A stretch of 64,000 bases of DNA from Podarcis pityusensis (taxonomy: Eukaryota). Positions 30,252-61,399 of the stretch are shown here, piece by piece. Made by a program: the position numbers and the translations under genes. Location of the stretch: assembly GCA_964106645.2 (NCBI GenBank), contig OZ067043.1, one strand, 5' to 3'. The notes under the pieces were generated by a model. The model saw only the letters and a program-made list of their open reading frames with translations. It was not told where the DNA came from and searched no databases. How positions within the stretch are numbered: the stretch's first letter is position 1; every line of letters starts with the position of its first letter.

Positions 30252-31470
30252 AGCAAGGTACATAAAGGATTCCACAATCACATAATAAGAAGGTCCTTAT
30301 TAAAGGCCTGGGAAAAATATAAAGAGTTACTGGAACCTAAAACTCTGTGGTGGATATTCCTCAAAGAAAGGAAGAGGGCCAACCTATAGAGAACTATTAA
30401 TTGAACAGGAAGGAAAATTAAAATTGAAAGAGCATGTCAAAATAAAGGAATATTTACAGAGTTGGTTGCACCATAGACAACTGAATGAAATTTTTAAAGA
30501 GGCCAATAAAAAATGATTTGCCTATACAGTTTCCAGATTTAAAAGGGATGTTATAGATGATAACTCTAAACTGTTAAAAAAGGCATATGGCATACTTCTG
30601 AAATTAAATTAAAGAGAAATTAAAGATGAGGAAGTTAAATCAGTAATGATTAAATGGGCACAGGATATTGGGCATAATATACAATTTGATGTTTGGACAA
30701 AACTTTGAAAAGCGGACTTGAAGTTTACGGATTGTATATTGTTAAAAGAGAATTATATGAAGATGATGTACAGGTGGTATGTTACACCAACAAAATTGGC
30801 AAGAATGTATAAAACAGAACAAAGGAATTGTTGGAGATGTAAAGAAGGGGAAGGTACCTTTTACCATATGTGGTGGGAGTGTAAAAATATTCAAATCTTT
30901 TGGGAAATGATATATAATGAATTGAAAAAAATATTTAAAATGACATTTATTAAAAAACCAGAAGCTTTTTTGATAGGAATTTTAGGTCAACTGCCAAAAG
31001 AAAAACAGACATTATTTATGTATGCGATGACAGCGGCAAGAATTCTGATAGCACAGAACTGGAAGACTGGAGCTATACCATCAAAGGAACAATGGCAAGA
31101 GAAGTTGATGAACTATGCAGAGTTGGCAAAGTTAACAGATAAACTGTGTGAAAAAGACAATAGTGATTTTGAAAAAGAATGGGAACCTTTTACATTGTAT
31201 TTGCAGAAACAACAACAAAAGATAGAGTCATTGGTAGGACTTAAATAAACATTTGAAATTTTGCTTATAAAAAATAAGAAAGCTAATAGTAGGACAATAT
31301 AGAAGTATATATAAACAACAGAATGTAATATGACATGTAATAAACCAGGGATAGAAGTTGAGGGAAGTCAGTGGGGAAGGGGGAAAATGAAATTTGAATG
31401 TAATGTAATGATTACAGATATTGTTTTTTAAACCCCCCCCCCCAATAAAAATGATTTTAAAAACAACAAC
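30252..31470 (+). mobile_element. Older, degenerate L1-clade LINE 3' fragment related to the 33-35 kb element
   Basis: ORF 30718-31248 (MKMMYRWYVTP...CWRC...HMWWEC...KKPEAFL) aligns by eye with the 257-aa ORF. Upstream part has stops and frameshifts. AATAAA and an A-rich tail near 31444-31470. Confidence 0.88.
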
Positions 31471-33021: not shown

Positions 33022-35129
33022 TTTTTTTTTAATAAATGATTTTTATTAAGGTTTCAATAAAAGGTTAGACAGAAAAACACAAATACACAATACATAATCC
33101 AAAAAAAGAAGAAAAACACAAAGAGCAGGAAAAAAAAGAAACAGAACAATTAAAAACAATATCACCTTTTCATTTCCGTTTTTAAATTTACTTATTTTCT
33201 GGACTTCCTCATACCTCCCTCTTTTGTATTCCAGTCCAAATTGTTTGTCCAGCAATTTCTTTTCCACTTTTTTAATCCCAATCTTTAATCTTAATGTAAT
33301 ATAGCATTAAAATTTTACCTCTTAAGTACCAAATTTCCATTTCATTAAATTTCTTTAATCCTAATCTTTAATCTTAGTCTATCTATAACTTTATCCTGTA
33401 CAGTTGGAAACCACTTATTTTCAATTCAACATCACTCTAACATTCTTTAATTTTGCAGTGTTTCTGTAGATAATCTTTGAATTTCTTCCAATCTTCCTCC
33501 ACCGACTCTTCTCCCTGGTCACGGATTCTGCCAGTCATTTCCGCCAGTTCCATATAGTCCATCAGTTTCATCTGCCATTCCTCCAGCGTGGGAAGTTCTT
33601 GTGTCTTCCAGTACTTTGCGATGAGTATTCTTGCTGCTGTTGTTGCATACATAAAGAAAGTTCTATCCTTTTTTAACACCATTTGGCCGACAATGCCCAG
33701 GAGAAAGGCCTCTGGTTTCTTGGGGAAGGTATATTCAAATACCTTTTTTAATTCATTATAAATCATTTCCCAGAAAGCCTTAATCTTTGGGCACGTCCAC
33801 CAAAGGTGAAAAAATGTACCTTCAGTTTCTTTACATTTCCAACATTTATTATCAGGCAAATGATAGATTTTTGCAAGCTTGACTGGGGTTATGTACCACC
33901 TGTATATCATTTTCATAATATTCTCTCTTAAGGCATTACATGCCGTAAATTTCATACCTGTGGTCCACAACTGTTCCCAGTCAGCAAACATAATGTTATG
34001 TCCAACGTCTTGTGCCCATTTAATCATAGCCGATTTTACCGTTTCATCCTGAGTGTTCCATTTCAGCAGCAAGTTATACATTCTTGACAAATTCTTAGTT
34101 TTGGGTTCTAACAGTTCAGTTTCTAATTTTGATCTTTCCACCTGGAAGCCAATTTTCTTGTCCAATTTAAATGCCTCCATTATCTGATAATAATGAAGCC
34201 AGTCTCGCACTTTGTTTTTTTAATTTTTCAAAACTCTGCAATTTCAGTCTATCTCCATCTTGTTCCAAAATTTCCCAATATTTCGGCCATTTGACCTCCA
34301 TATTGACCTTTTTCAAGGCTTTCGCTTCCATTGGTGACAGCCACCTTGGGGTTTTGTTTTCTAATAAATCCTTATATCTTATCCAAACATTAAACAGCGC
34401 TTTCCTGACAATGTGGTTTTTAAATGCTATATGTGCTTTGACCTTATCATACCATAGGTATGCATGCCATCCAAATACATTGTTAAAACCTTCTAAATCC
34501 AAAATGTCAGTGTTTTCAAGAAGTAGCCATTCTTTCAACCAGCAAAAAGCTGCTGATTCATAGTAAAGTTTGAGGTCTGGCAGGGCAAATCCACCTCTTT
34601 CCTTTGCATCCGTTAGTATTTTAAATTTTATTCTGGGCTTCTTGCCCTGCCAGACAAATTTAGAAATATCTTTCTGCCACCTCTTGAAACAATCCATTTT
34701 GTCCACAATTTGCAAAGTTTGAAACAAAAACAACATTCTAGGCAATACATTCATTTTTATCGCAGCAATACGGCCCAGCAGTGAAAGCTTCAAATTTGAC
34801 CAAATTTCTAAATCTTTTTTCACTTCAGACCAACATTTTTCATAGTTATCTTTAAATAAGTTCCCATTTTTTGCTGTCATGTTAATCCCCAGGTATTTGA
34901 CTTTCTTAACCACTGTTAAACCTGTCTCATTCTGAAACCTCTCTCTTTCAATTGGTGTTAAATTTTTCTCTAAAACCTTAGTTTTTGACTTGTTCAATTT
35001 AAATCCTGCCACTTGACCAAATTCTTGAATCAGTTCTAAAACCCTTTTAGTACTAGATTCTGGCTCCTGTAACGTCAATACTAAGTCATCTGCGAATGCT
35101 CTCAATTTGTACTGTTTAGTTCCGACCTG
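33022..35129 (-). mobile_element. Young 5'-truncated L1-clade LINE (C-terminal RT with FADD motif, CCHC zinc knuckle, 3'UTR, polyA) with 19-bp TSD
   Basis: ORFs 34167-35141 and 33437-34210 (AFADDLVL, KYLGI, CWKC...HLWWTC) are joined by a single frameshift in an A-run near 34215. PolyT at 33022-33030. TSD tgggggtggcactgttttg at 33003-33021 and 35130-35148. Confidence 0.95.
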
Positions 35130-35813
35130 TGGGGGTGGCACTGTTTTGGTTGACTGTTCACCACAGCTGCTGTGTCAGCCATGCTGATCCTGCCTACCTA
35201 TTTGGATTAACAGTGATCAGCTCACAGATCCGCAGAATCCCGATGCACTTGCAAACCCTTCCATCTGAAAGAGTATTTAAAATGAGAGTTGCTACAGAGT
35301 AGCTCAGTTCATCTGGAATTCTGTACATGCCCAGAGACAGTGTGTGTGATTTGGTTTCACTGAGCAATGAGTGTGTCATTGTGGAAAGCCCCTGGGTTGC
35401 AGCCAGCCCAAACTAGCAATAAACAGAAAGTTGTAATTTTCCAATTGATCTCCTGAACCAATTCCCATATCAAATACAAGTGAGTATCATTTGCTCATTA
35501 ATCATCCAAAGAATGGATGCCAACCCAGCCAGTCTTAGCTCTGCTTGCATTTTCCAAAATATCTAACTATGATTCCTTTCAGTTATGATAAGATTATCCC
35601 ATTAAAAATAAGATGTGGCTGGCAGAGGTGCCTTTGTGACTTTTATTTGACTTTTCAGCCACTTTTTAGGCAAATGTCTCTCAACACATCTATAATACAG
35701 ATCCTTAAAACCCAGCAATAAAATAACTAAACATTTTCAACTATCCACTTCCATCCAAAGTGTAGATCAAAACATCATACAATAAAGTGGGGAGGGAAAA
35801 GATACTGAAAGTA

Positions 35814-38762: not shown

Positions 38763-39939
38763 CTGACCCGGTAAGAATCACTTTTATTATTTTATTTCCA
38801 TGTGTCTGTGCATGTGCCTTGCATACTGTAGCTATGTTATGTGATTATGCTATCTATCTGAATTGACGAAACATAGTTAATAAGTAACATCACTATTTAT
38901 TTAAAGAGAACTATATAAAGAGAACGGCACTATTTTCAGCTCTCAAATCATATTGGCTAACTGCATGGGAATCACAGTAGTAGTACTATACTACCATCTC
39001 CGCCAGCTAGATCTCTGAGTAGGGGATGTGTTCATGCCTGGCACTTATGAAAAGGACTTAAGCACTCATAAATTGCTTCCAAATCCCACCAGTGCTCAGA
39101 GCCCAGATCCAGTAGAAGCTTTCACCTAAAATGGTCCCCCACCAATTTTCCACCATGGCATACACTATGCAGTCAGCACTTCTTGCTTCCAACTCTTGGT
39201 GCATGGGCATATTGTGAGTGACACAACTTGCATGTTCAAGTGATATTTTGCCACATTCTAGCTGGGCAAACCCAGCCAGGTAGATGAAATCTGCTTTGTA
39301 ACATGCCCTTAAAAGCACATTGTAGATTTCAGCATGTTTGATTATGTTAAGACTGAGACACCCCCAAAGATAAATGAACTCAATTTAGCTTCTTCTTCTT
39401 TTTTATGTCTTCTCGCTCCCTCTGTTTTTAAATATCTGTTGAAAATTCCAGAAGTGTGCGTACAAATATGTTTCTTTGCATCTCATCCATGGAGGCTAGC
39501 TTGGTACATGTATATATTTGTGAAACCAGGCTCAACCCTGCCCTGCAGTGATGAACCTTTGAACCAAGGCAACTTACAAATAAGAAGCAAGATACATATA
39601 ACAATATCTGACCATGGTCAGCAGCTTCCAACAAGATTTACTAATATTAGCCATGACTTTCCAGTGCTTAGATCATGTTGTTTTGTTTTGTTTTTAAGCT
39701 AAGGCTCAGCCCCCAAACTCATGAAGAGGTGATTTTGATAACTGTTCATCTGAGCACACACAGAAAGTATTTTTATATCCCTTTCCACACATGGGTTTAG
39801 AAACAGAGCTTCCATATCAGATGGTACAGTTTCAAAACATGCTGGAATGCCAGTATACTTTTCCTTTTAGACATTAACAATGGGACATAGCGCTTCACCA
39901 AATTGCATGAGCCTGTAGGGCCATGGGAAGCATGGGTAC

Positions 39940-40371
39940 TGTCAGGGAACTGACATCGGAGCTAGAGGCGGAGGGAAGGCTCTCAAATGATGCTGGAGAA
40001 GGGCCCAGCAGGGAGAGAGGCAGCTCCGCAGATGGGGAAGCAAATCAGCGCCACACCAGGGATAAAGGGGGGCAGATGGGGGAATCGGCGAGAGGGCTCC
40101 AGGACTCTTCACCGGACACCAGCGGGGAGAGCACGGGTTCTCCGCTACCCACGCCCTCCCTGCGCAGAAGACTTCCACGCAGAGAGAGTAGGAGGAGACT
40201 GGGTGTCAAACAACTTTTATGCTGGAAAAGATTTAAGAAACGCCCACTGACGGATTCTGCTAGCGACTGAGGCAGCCACGAAGTGAAGGGCTGCCCAGAC
40301 TGAAAGGTTTAACAAGGCAACAAAGCCAGGAGAGGCGGCAACTTACGCACGAGCAACCCATACTCATTACA
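39940..40371 (+). mobile_element. Solo-LTR-like element, copy A (432 bp), with a 109-codon open frame
   Basis: TGTCA...TTACA termini, perfect 5-bp TSD GGTAC (39935-39939 and 40372-40376), closely similar to 55501-55935. Confidence 0.88.
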
Positions 40372-40500
40372 GGTACTCACTGGGTGAAATTCACAGGGAG
40401 ACCTGGGGCAAGTAACACTTTCTGAACCTAACCTACTTCATAGGGTTGGTGTGAGGATAAAGCCGGGCGTTTAACCCTGAGATCCTTGGATGAAGGGTGG

Positions 40501-52884: not shown

Positions 52885-54228
52885 ACTTCATGGTGAGTAC
52901 TGGCTTTTCTAGAGAAAAAGCACTGCCCAAATGTATAACAATAAGAATAGGCCAGTTAAATCCAGCCAGTGACCAGTCTAGTCCAATATCCTGTTCTCAC
53001 AGTGGCCAACCAGGTGTCCATGTCACTCTCCCCTCCTACAGTTTCCAACAACTGGAATTCAGAAGCAGGATGTCTCCAACAGTGAAAGTAGAACATAGGC
53101 ATCATGTTTAGTAGTCATCTCCCAACTTAATGATTAAATTCTGGGGGAACTGGGCAGTAACACTGAAGAACGACTGCTCTTAGCATCTCACACTAAAAAA
53201 ATTCCAGTGGAACATTTCTGAAAAGGCAAATAGGGACAAAACAGCCAGTGATTTGCTTTCTCGGACACAGGTGCCACAAAAGAGGGTCTGTCTCCCCAAA
53301 AAATAAAATAAAATAGGGGCAACTGGTGTGTTCTGATAGACAATGAAGCCCTGCTGGGATAGCTGATTATATCGTGAGTGCACTTTTTGTGAAACTGAAG
53401 AGCTTCCTTGCAAGAAGAAATCTGGATCCTATGTATCTGTTGCTTGATAAACCATTTATCTAAAAAAGGCTGAAGGCTCTGTCCCCCTGTTTGGAAGAAA
53501 CTGTTGGTTATTTCATTGCACTGACTCCCTTGGCGTCATAGCCATTCAGTGATGTACATGAATGGTTGCCGATTCCCCTTGTTACAGGATTAATAGCTTT
53601 ACAAGCCAGTGGACAGAGCCAGATCTAGAGGCCTAAAATAATGCAGCCTAATGAGCTCAGAGCATCATGGAAAGTAGAAAACCCGTTAACAGAGTTTAAA
53701 AATAAGCTCAAGTGCCGTCAAGAGTTTAAACAGGATAATCGACACAGGTTTCCATTCAACAATTACCTGGGGCGCGGGTGTCACTGGCAATAAATAAAGC
53801 AGCTATATTGGAACTAGCTGGTTAAGTAACAATTAAAAAATAGTTCTCACACAAATATTTCTTTCCAAACGACTGGCACTAATAGAACCGGCACTTGAAT
53901 TGAAGAAAGAGACAATTGAGTTATAGAATTGCTGGCTATTACTGGTTGTTTAAAAATCATGTATATTGTCATCAGAGGAATTTCTGTACCTTCAGTTTGG
54001 AAAGATGCATTTTCTTCCTGTTATCTCTATTCTTTTTGTTGATGTTAAGTTCAAAATGCTTTTAAATTTTCATCTAATCCAATTGGATATGAATTAAGGA
54101 TTGGGCCAGGGGAGAGGCGTTGATTTGTGGGGAGGGGGGCAATTAGATATCGGGGGGGGCTCATGCAGTTCCCTGTATAACAAATTGACTCAACATGTCC
54201 TTCTTCCATGTGGCCTTTATCTTCACAG

Positions 54229-54624
54229 ACCAAGGCACCCATGAAACCCAAAGTATGCATCTGTGCCTGCAAGATGTCACAGGAGAAGAATGCAGCCAAA
54301 GCTGCTGCGAACAAGCATCAGAAGCCATTTCCAGTAGCTCTGGGCTACAAAATGGAGCAGGCTTTAGTTTCTCAGTATGTCCCTGTTGTTCTCCACCCTG
54401 GAGGACACAAGCGTGAGTCTCTCCGATATGCTTTCTACAACCCTAACTACTCCAACACGTACACACCATTTTACACTTTGCAAAAACCCACCTGCGGTTA
54501 TCGGTATTGTCGAGACACAGATCACACGAGGAAGGTGATGGATGTTGAAAGAGTGGATTTCTCAAAATGGAAACCCATTTTTGGGAAGAAGCCAGGCTTG
54601 TCTGCAGCAGGCTCAAAACACTGA
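54229..54624 (+). CDS. CIMIP3: CIMIP3 / GUCA1ANB (ciliary microtubule inner protein 3), main coding exon
   Basis: C-terminal motif FYNPNYSNTYTPFYTLQKPTCGYRYCRDTDHTRKVMDV resembles recalled GUCA1ANB/CIMIP3. It lies between C6orf132 and GUCA1A as in human. Acceptor tttatcttcacag ends at 54228, TGA at 54622-54624, alternative in-frame ATGs at 54241 and 54274. Confidence 0.8.
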   Translation, partial: TKAPMKPKVCICACKMSQEKNAAKAAANKHQKPFPVALGYKMEQALVSQYVPVVLHPGGHKRESLRYAFYNPNYSNTYTPFYTLQKPTCGYRYCRDTDHTRKVMDVERVDFSKWKPIFGKKPGLSAAGSKH

Positions 54625-54939: not shown

Positions 54940-55500
54940 ACACCAAAATGCAAAGCCTGTTGAGGAGATTCTATTTATCCTTGTGGCCTCATGCACTCTG
55001 TGTTTTTGTTCCCCACAGTAATGGTAAGGGCAGAAGCAGAAATTATTTATGCTGTACTTTCTTCAGTTTTGCTGTAACATGGGGTGTCAGTGGGGGCTTT
55101 TGGATCTCACGCATGGAGAGTTCTGTCTTCTGAGTTTCAAACAGCCACTGGAACAGGGAAGGTTGATACACAACTCTGTTATACCTTCTCCACTTTGGTA
55201 TAGCATGTGAATGGACTTTCACGGGCTGAAGATGTCACTTCTAAGGCAGGTGAAGAAGGTAGGCAGCCAGTTTAGTGATCTGGGAATTTGCAAAGATGTT
55301 AAGATGGTGGGTGGAAGCATGAGAGGGAAACCCACAGTATCCTAAGCAAGCAGACAGGTCATTGCCACAGCAGGGCTGTGTATCTCCACAGCTTTGTTAT
55401 ATAAGAAGTACCCACCATTCTCTTGAAACATGGAGTGCACCTGAAATAAGGCTCTGCTGTAGTCTAGTGACATGTTGAGAACATTGGACTTCACACAACC

Positions 55501-55935
55501 TGTCAGGGAACTGACATCGGAGCCAGAGGCGGAGGCTAGGCTCTCGAGCGATGCTGGAGAAGGGCCCAGCAGGGGTAGAGGCAGCTCACCATCTGGGGAA
55601 AGAAATCAGCGTAACACCAGGGATAAAGGGGGGCAGATGGGGGAATCGGCGAGGGGGCTCCAGGACTCATCGCCGGAGATCAGCGAGGAGAGCACTGGTC
55701 CTCCGCTACCCACGCCCTCCCTGCGCAGAAGACTTCCGCGCAGGGAGAGTAGGAGGAGACTTGGAGTCAAACAACTTTTATGCTGGAAAAGGTTTAAGAA
55801 ACGCCCACTGACGGATTCTGCTAGCGACTGAACAGCCACGAAGTGCAGGGGCTGTCCAGACAGAAAAGGTTTAACAAGGCAACCTAGCCAGGAGTGGCAC
55901 CAACTTGTGCACGAGCAACCCCCACATTTGTTACA
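55501..55935 (+). mobile_element. Solo-LTR-like element, copy B (435 bp), with a 109-codon open frame
   Basis: TGTCA...TTACA termini, perfect 5-bp TSD CAACC (55496-55500 and 55936-55940), paralog of 39940-40371. Confidence 0.88.
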
Positions 55936-56407
55936 CAACCTATTTGTGTGTATCAGAAACATATTGGTTATCAGGGATGTTATTTGAGGGGCAGGATCAG
56001 TATGTGCTTACCACATTTGGATGTAAGTGAAATGATACAGATTACCATATGAAAAGATTGTGTGTGTGTATGTATATGAGAGAGAGCATTAAGCCCAGAG
56101 TCTAAAATTATTTGTGGGCCCACACAAGTAGGACATCTTAAGTACTGCAGGGGGGAAGAAGACGCAACAACACAAATGCCTGGGACCTCTATGTGTGCAC
56201 TCACTTTGTAAGGATGAGACTGGAGTCAGGATGACTCCTGCTGGGGAAGTCTCCAGCTTCTATCCTCTTGCAAGTGCTGAGCTATTTATTTTTCTGTTTG
56301 TTTTACAGTATGTGTGTTTTCCATCTGCTTTAACAAGGCTGAAGATATTTTAGATGTTATGCTGATGCTGCGTTTCCTTCATGCAGATGTCATTGGGTTC
56401 CCACATA

Positions 56408-59684: not shown

Positions 59685-60020
59685 AAGTGGATTAGAAGCT
59701 TACAATGTCTTCAGGTAAATCCTGCCATTTTAATCTCCTGGGTCCCATAATCTGCAAAACGCTTTCCCATTTTACCACCTTTCTATTTTTTGCCCTGAAC
59801 TTCCCATGCCCCTTTTGGGATCCCATCATAGGACTCTTCTCTCATTGGCTGGAGGAGGATTTAGTGGGTACTTAAACATCAGGTGCTTCTTTGAAGAGGC
59901 TTTTGCAATTTTAAAACTCCATCAGAGAGCGTGAAATTTTCTCAGGAAGCTCCCCCAATCATCCCTGCTCTTTAGCAAGCCTTAGGAGGTTTGCTGTTTT
60001 CTTTCACTTATAAATACCAT
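59685..60020 (+). promoter_or_regulatory. GUCA1A photoreceptor promoter
   Basis: GGATTA at 59689, TAATCT at 59731 and 59748 (CRX/OTX K50-homeodomain-type motifs), CCAAT at 59955, TATAAATA at 60009, about 100 bp upstream of the ATG. Confidence 0.6.
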
Positions 60021-60109
60021 ACCGCCTGCTTCTGAACTGTAACAAGGGGGAAGCCTCTAGAAGTCCTCCACTGTTTTCTGAGAGACGTGCTCACCTCTTT
60101 TGCTTTACA

Positions 60110-60307
60110 ATGGGGAACATGGATGGAAAGTCTGTTGAGGAACTGAGCGCCACCGAGTGCCACCAGTGGTACAAGAAGTTCATGACGGAGTGTCCCTCCG
60201 GTCAGCTGACCTTGCATGAGTTCAAGCAGTTTTTTGGCTTGAAAAACCTGACTCCAGCATCAAATGAATACATCGAGCAGATGTTTGAAACATTCGACTT
60301 TAATAAG
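60110..60307 (+). CDS. GUCA1A: Guanylyl cyclase-activating protein 1 (GCAP1), coding exon 1
   Basis: [47 protein letters not shown]...MFETFDFNK has Gly2 for myristoylation, the non-functional EF1 with CPxG, and the start of EF2. Donor AAG|GTGGGT after 60307. Exon 2 was not seen in the window. Confidence 0.96.
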
Positions 60308-61399
60308 GTGGGTATTCAGCTGCAGTCAGACAACATTCTGTTTACATATGTAATGCCCATACATATAAGAACATGTGGTTCTTATCTAAAATACTATGAA
60401 ATAACATCTAATCCTCACAGTGTTGATCTTTGCCGTTTTTACTTTGTTTGATATAGAACAGTAATTTCTGTCTGTCTGTTATGATATTGCACACTTTCTA
60501 TTTTTTTTGAATGGAATGTGCCTTTCTCAGTTTTGAATTGCTGCTTGTGAACGTGCTATATGTGTTGGATCTTTTTCAGGAGTAGTCTGGTTATTATTGC
60601 TAGTTTAATCATTTACTTTTACTGCTGGATTAGATGGAAATTTCAAAGCCTGCCGTTTTCAAAGTCCTGCACCCAGAACCCCGCCACATGAGCATTTCTG
60701 AATATTTGTAACAAAAAACTCTGTTACCTGCATCTGGAAAGCAAATTTCCTATTACTGCTGATGCTCTGAATATTCTGATCATGCAACACTCCTGAGGAG
60801 CTTCTAGTCTCGTTTTAGTCTGGTGATCTTCTCCAAGCCTTTTTCGGGGGAGCTGGAATATTGGTTACTGCTGCCCCATGGAAAATACTGCTATTCTGAT
60901 TATGTGCTGACAGTGACCTGTTTAACATCAGTGGAGTTGATGCAGGGTCATCACATGTGGAGTGCTGGCAAACCAGGAGCAAAGCTGTATAAGAAGCTTT
61001 CAGGACCTAGGGGCATGTAAAGCTTATTTTCTAGGCAAAAGGCCCTAGGGTCAATTCCTGCTGTCATTCAGCATGTGTTAAGTATAGAATTGATCTGCAG
61101 ATGTCAAAGGAGGCAGCCCTGTCTTTACTCTTAAGTCAGATGTGTTCTACATCCGTTTAACAGGGGAGCTGTAAGGATCCCAAATCTTTTTCTAAGTGCC
61201 CCAAGTATTTCTGGGTATAAAATGAATTTGAGGGAAATTGTGTTGTGGGGTGATCTGGGTTGGGGAAATCATTTAAGATAATTTCATCTGGAGATAATTT
61301 GGGGGAGAATGAATGGGGTTCAGGCATGGTGTGTTAGGTGGGGTGCCGCTGTTCATCTGTCCTCCTGTCTGGCAAGGAAGCACTGGGTTCACAGCAGCA

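Follow-up and report, generated by a model that had tools for sequence, protein, structure and literature searches.

The two related repeats in a 64,000-nt stretch of Podarcis pityusensis DNA (the window, meaning the whole stretch analysed) are, we conclude with high confidence, solo long terminal repeats (LTRs) of a chromovirus whose Pol protein ends 331 nt into the 3′ LTR. The peptide that they encode would be the tail of its integrase, likely serving nuclear entry or chromatin binding. A sequence-only reading of the window had proposed that the open frame of these repeats specifies either an undescribed accessory protein or a C-terminal domain. The latter alternative turned out to be right; the accessory protein did not hold, as the frame is continuous with Pol through the polypurine tract (PPT).

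Two solo LTRs and their parent family

Copy A (39940–40371, plus strand, 432 nt) is flanked by the 5-bp target-site duplication (TSD) GGTAC (39935–39939, second copy 40372–40376), and copy B (55501–55935, plus strand, 435 nt) by CAACC (55496–55500, second copy 55936–55940). Both repeats start with TGT and end with ACA, copy A reading TGTCAGG...CATTACA, and they are independent insertions, as had been stated before. They represent subfamily 3 (type A) and subfamily 4 (type B) of one family, and relatives 98% identical to copy A stand on either side of gag-pol elements. Each copy carries a plus-strand frame that opens at nucleotide 2 and runs for 109 codons to a common TGA, with no indel ahead of the stop; these are the last 109 codons of Pol (copy A, 39941–40270; copy B, 55502–55831), orphaned in a solo LTR. 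The earlier codon comparison was reproduced: 12 codons differ synonymously only and 12 change the amino acid, the final five changed codons being silent throughout. The two copies differ at 29 bases, 16 of them in third positions. The other two sense frames gave ratios of synonymous-only to amino-acid-changing codons of 4:19 and 2:22, and the antisense frames 11:12 in one and 3:21 and 2:22 in the remaining two.

DNA searches of the organism's own genome (1.5 Gb, 336 contigs) with both LTRs as queries returned 3291 and 2696 first-look candidates, and the 40 of each that were scored were 97–99% identical. An exact 5-bp duplication identified solo LTRs at 36 of 60 loci from both searches; many of the remaining loci showed fixed internal sequence after the LTR or a G-rich tract before it. 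Two-LTR elements were recognized as paired matches 4–9 kb apart with gag (Retrotrans_gag, zf-CCHC) and a PR-RT-RH-IN-SH3-chromodomain array. The paired LTRs were 94–100% alike in 14 elements and exceeded 98% in 11 of these, and the family is therefore young. The best solved relative of its Pol is Ty3 Gag-Pol (E 2e-126), and the nearest matches are chromodomain-bearing Pols of lizards, amphibians, fish and fungi, the closest named ones being from P. muralis. TG...CA termini with a 5-bp TSD, the PR-RT-RH-IN order and a C-terminal integrase chromodomain are the hallmarks of Ty3/gypsy chromoviruses. Judged by sequence, both repeats belong to a large family of this type that is Tf1/sushi-like in its features. 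The end of gag carried GGGAAAC, a likeness to the PEG10 slippery site, in six of eight elements. Rfam (L069, positions 1–2400) and ARAGORN (L069) gave no match.

Like the V-clade elements Sushi-ichi and Amn-san, the lizard family combines gag and the PR-RT-RH-IN order with GPF/SH3, a chromodomain and a vertebrate host. It also has a self-priming site, a mechanism described in passages of PMC6317226 and PMC4600332, and the ends of copy A fit the Sushi motif TGTYANR...CNTNACA given in PMC3601003. In contrast to Tf1/sushi elements, the lizard Pol fills nearly all of U3 and extends about 240 residues past the YLVxW motif of the chromodomain (median of 61 among 97 Pol homologues), and copy A contains neither an AATAAA nor a TATA word.

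Several observations concern the surroundings of these elements. Copy B lies between a CIMIP3 exon (54181–54624; Pfam PF22581) and a presumed GCAP/GUCA1A-like first exon at 60014–60451, for which Pfam had no match. Fragments of candidate non-LTR retrotransposon reverse-transcriptase frames occur at 33437–35174 (minus strand) and 30709–31248 (plus strand). Elsewhere in the genome, about 18 near-identical Pol copies spaced roughly 20–30 kb apart (G000:C19:509193-968905) suggest an element within a tandemly amplified block. Two-LTR copies are generally abundant on contig C19 (38 Mb), as they might be on a non-recombining W. One two-LTR element holds a nested insertion (L067:3197-4927) with frames that are presumably pogo/Tigger-like transposase. 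The UniRef protein P0004 from P. muralis is a predicted phospholipid-transporting ATPase whose C-terminus consists of the final ~45 residues of the LTR peptide; this fusion is probably a gene-model artefact and possibly an exonisation of a solo LTR. In P0130, an integrase is similarly joined to a V2R model.

The end of Pol and selection on the frame

The sequence-only reading had asked whether the frame extends upstream through the PPT from pol, and it does. In L068 and L069, one uninterrupted natural frame (1124 aa and 1114 aa, respectively) leads from reverse transcriptase to the LTR stop in the order reverse transcriptase, RNase H, integrase, GPF/SH3, chromodomain and LTR peptide. The PPT is translated as G-G-E-V-D, the first LTR base completing the Asp codon. 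Of 31 3′ LTRs picked by their PPT pattern, 27 share one phase between chromodomain and LTR frame; the four that do not look like decayed copies. An independent protein, P0001, is 69–72% identical over the tail, and P0001, P0129 and P0133, all from other assemblies, share the same C-terminal ending. LLCWKR is kept in P0001, P0129, the farther relative L142 and P0131, where it still lies near the end at 67% integrase identity; the tails of L140 and L141 are unrelated. Three further Pol types in this genome (one representative each) extend 100, 117 and 211 codons into their own 3′ LTR, and the layout is therefore common in this genome; L140, L141 and L142 are the representatives.

Pfam found no family for either window peptide, as the earlier reading had suggested checking. 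A HMMER search with the 212-aa tail against 1.84 billion representatives returned three matches at E up to 0.001, namely P0001, a partial copy (P0005) and one weak match, and the ESM Atlas returned only chromodomain clusters (<0.9). In the openly searchable literature, we found no account of a Pol overlap into the LTR for vertebrate or lizard chromoviruses; for sushi elements, the overlap may be on record already. In plants, the polyprotein frame of CRM group A and of several Reina elements enters the 3′ LTR, and in CRM the part encoded there holds the targeting CR motif, according to passages of PMC3059260 and PMC3605345. The lizard element resembles CRM group A and the Reina-clade Bingo in this extension but belongs to another clade in another kingdom, keeps its chromodomain upstream of the PPT and has no Pfam match in its LTR-coded part. 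A chromovirus Pol ending inside the 3′ LTR is thus a known layout, and it explains the protein-coding look of the solo LTRs of this family.

The earlier claim that the frame was kept under purifying selection during replication stands for its last 42 codons; the first 67 could not be separated from the baseline. Across the family, the signal goes beyond chance: the frame was intact in 93 of 106 extracted LTR copies (the intact-frame filter dropped 13, of which two were full length but failed the pattern) and in 55 of 65 copies picked by DNA similarity. The 93 intact copies form nine subfamilies of 66–94% identity. Between subfamilies, the last 42 codons had an NG86 omega of 0.13 (95% codon bootstrap 0.07–0.23) and 0.12–0.18 across estimates, with a maximum-likelihood (ML) value of 0.165 for 16 copies. 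The N-terminal part gave 0.52 (0.36–0.77; first 68 columns) and, by ML on 16 copies, 0.578. Type A against type B yielded 0.07 for the last 42 codons and 0.45 for the N-terminal part. In codons 69–102, dS was 0.58 between subfamilies versus a dN of 0.07, and a dS of 0.54–0.58 in the C-terminal part places the constraint on the protein.

Within subfamilies omega was 0.40, and the N/S ratio of rare non-CpG variants was 0.56 for transitions and 0.40 for transversions (CpG variants, 1.36), so that the neutral baseline of this sample lies below 1. This may stem from ascertainment by best hits and intact frames, or from sublineages that were sampled once or not at all. Omega of the N-terminal part therefore shows little, and the C-terminal part alone clearly stands out. 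ML omega by segment (10 natural copies; the segments are short and the values carry no intervals) was 0.11 for IN/SH3, 0.13 for the chromodomain, 0.15 and 0.19 for two FxGF motifs described below, 0.52 and 1.29 for the spacers that follow the first and the second motif, and 0.58 and 0.18 for the N- and C-terminal parts of the LTR peptide. In copy A, the N-terminal part (codons 1–67; 39941–40141, plus strand) is a weakly constrained Gly/Ser/Glu-rich linker with predicted disorder (pLDDT <50). The constrained C-terminal part (40142–40267, plus strand) is basic, with 14 K/R among 42 aa, and ends in LLCWKRFKKRPLTDSASD. Between subfamilies, length differences amount to net multiples of three within the frame but mostly to 1–2 nt from the stop onwards. 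Five indels were seen in the frame among copies picked by DNA similarity, all of them frame-breaking singletons. At L069:5605, reads from four RNA runs of a related organism agree with the element as far as the Pol stop and, in every run, diverge directly behind it, which is in line with constraint ending there.

These data suggest how a solo LTR could come to look protein-coding. The pol frame would pass the PPT and end inside the 3′ LTR, and selection would act on this copy in replicating elements. Reverse transcription would then copy U3 to both ends of the element, and LTR-LTR recombination would leave solo LTRs in which the record of selection is preserved but from which no peptide would be expressed. 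The tail would stay attached to the mature integrase, where its constrained basic end, by comparison with Ty1, is a candidate segment for nuclear import or for binding to chromatin. According to PMC7459421, the C-terminal tail of Ty1 integrase combines a nuclear-localisation signal with a short motif for host binding and targeting; the likeness is that of a C-terminal integrase segment by description, and Ty1 differs in belonging to the Copia superfamily and in its Pol III target.

Self-primer and internal methionine

The 11 nt from base 3 behind the 5′ LTR are the exact complement of LTR nucleotides 307–317, which in copy A is ACTGACGGATT (40246–40256, plus strand), the predicted transcript 5′ end and self-primer; it overlaps the codons for P-L-T-D-S. 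By sequence, the corresponding site in copy B is 55807–55817 (plus strand). An exact complement of 11–13 nt was present at 10 of 18 5′ LTRs, the remaining eight having a shorter or no exact match. In subfamilies 1 and 2, two compensating changes occur on both sides of the primer pairing in all four 5′ LTRs, and L142 has a third version of the pair. A primer-binding site forming the complement of the predicted transcript 5′ end is the feature of Tf1/sushi self-priming, and we infer a self-primed reverse transcription of this type. The transcript would start at about LTR nucleotide 307 and prime its own reverse transcription; nearly all of U3 would then be coding, and the final eight codons would also serve as primer. 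Four raw RNA runs from a related organism yielded 55–73 reads each from both strands, mostly 90–95% alike, which is too thin to judge expression; these showed no pile-up at the start.

This arrangement bears on an alternative in which conservation acts at the nucleotide level (promoter, self-primer or RNA structure) and read-through as far as the first stop leaves the frame open by coincidence. The self-primer does overlap the last eight codons, the promoter should sit directly upstream of it, and PLTDS shows an L-to-Q replacement that goes along with the change in the primer. However, bases vary freely in codons 69–102 while the residues are kept, as seen from the dS and dN above, and in-frame indels preserve the phase. 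In addition, the peptide end is retained in Pol types with 67–78% integrase identity. We thus regard this explanation as very unlikely, although promoter and primer constraints overlap the C-terminal part and may add to its conservation.

A separate 64-aa accessory protein starting at the internal Met, akin to Nef or Sag, is likewise very unlikely. In its favour, all 84 intact copies from seven subfamilies retain the ATG, and the constrained part lies downstream of it. However, the ATG occurs in none of eight copies of subfamilies 1 and 2, and the LTR-coded part of L142 contains no Met. Transcription is predicted to start 170 nt downstream of the Met, which would therefore be absent from LTR-started RNA. 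The conserved internal start and the Nef/Sag analogy of the earlier reading are accordingly abandoned, as the element is Ty3/gypsy, its frame is continuous with Pol, and no env-like long ORF was found in the two-LTR copies listed. The preferred reading remains that of an LTR frame encoding the C-terminus of Pol.

The integrase tail and its FxGF motifs

The chromodomain (PF00385, above cut-off) folds at a pLDDT of ~88 with a 10-sequence alignment, which predicts the rest of the tail to be disordered apart from short helices of low confidence at FWEEQF and VKQL; folding the tail as a single sequence was uninformative (mean pLDDT 46). Compared to HP1, the first cage Tyr is Asn, the Trp is kept and the third position is Glu instead of Tyr, so that two of the three aromatics are missing. 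The domain therefore lacks the three cage aromatics of type I and fits type II as defined in a passage of PMC3059260.

Directly upstream of the LTR, in the internal region and outside the window, lie two motifs of a putative helix, an acidic linker and FxGF that are about as constrained as the chromodomain. Motif 1 consists of a hydrophobic stretch, an 8-aa acidic linker and FxGF, and motif 2 of W-x-x-x-F, a 9-aa acidic Ser-rich linker and FRGF. All 10 aligned proteins keep the W, F, F, G and F of motif 2 (W130 and F134 included), although the G is gone from the genomic copy L070. Motif 1 shows the exact D/ExExFxGF consensus at 36 of 41 sites. This pattern was absent from 120 Pol homologues totalling 136,624 residues, and shuffling the acidic stretch 100,000 times produced it in 447 cases, figures to be read in view of the motifs having been spotted before being tested. 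In the farther Pol type, L or M replaces the first F of motif 1, P0131 is without motif 1, and P0002 lost its G. A helix is predicted at FWEEQF (83–88, block pLDDT ~51) and none at motif 2, and both motifs contain CK2-type S/T-x-x-D/E sites. The tail would be largely disordered, with constraint concentrated in three islands, the two motifs and the basic terminus inside the LTR.

The TIM/IBM motifs of MLL1, JPO2, IWS1 and PogZ bind LEDGF/p75 and HRP2, and consist of a helix, an acidic Ser/Thr-rich linker of 8–16 residues and FxGF, often in tandem, according to sections of the review PMC9987994; the LEDGF-binding consensus in an excerpt of PMC8022399 is D/ExExFxGF. Both lizard linkers fall within this range. 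Unlike the known ligands, the lizard motifs sit on a retrotransposon integrase and are candidate ligands by sequence, and motif 2 has Ser for the consensus Glu. The two motifs may tether the integrase to LEDGF/p75, which is also used by HIV. The wider proposal, that the retrotransposon swapped chromodomain methyl-lysine reading for mimicry of TND-binding motifs and that LEDGF/p75 or HRP2 steer its integration to H3K36me3 gene bodies, is tentative, and we hold it, like the tethering itself, at somewhat below even chances. A PDB sequence search with motif 1 gave three chance matches and none of the LEDGF-peptide fusions, and a PSIP1 exon in the genome matches P. muralis proteins at 100% identity. 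The only viral proteins that the same sections of the review name as using the LEDGF/HRP2 TND are lentiviral integrases. In the literature, judged by titles and the start of abstracts, we found no retrotransposon with a TIM or a LEDGF-binding FxGF.

Two other families in this genome have distinct tails. That of L134-L139 and L141, with 211 codons in the LTR, has FxGF behind a Ser/Thr-rich linker. By eye, 29 of its 150 matches listed fall within the initial 1 Mb of a chromosome-scale contig (~2 expected), a hint of subtelomeric targeting or retention. The family of L128-L133 and L140 is very young, with many identical matches in 1270-aa frames and L140 LTRs that are 99.9% alike. It is without the acidic FxGF motif, and its LTR-coded tail ends near RRSARL, just as the Anolis proteins P0143 and P0144 end near RRSARI; RRSARL presumably resembles the nucleosome-binding core of HMGN.

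The LTR frame itself is thus explained and ordinary, and the TIM-like tail, outside the window, is the new lead. If true, targeting would be convergent with lentiviruses, but by way of the linear motif of MLL1, JPO2 and IWS1 and not the catalytic core, and the basic terminus stored in U3 would complete the targeting tail. A vertebrate family that was active recently and bears constrained TIM-like motifs in tandem would offer a direct test of how chromoviruses with a cage-less chromodomain are targeted, with thousands of candidate insertion sites in one genome available for mapping.
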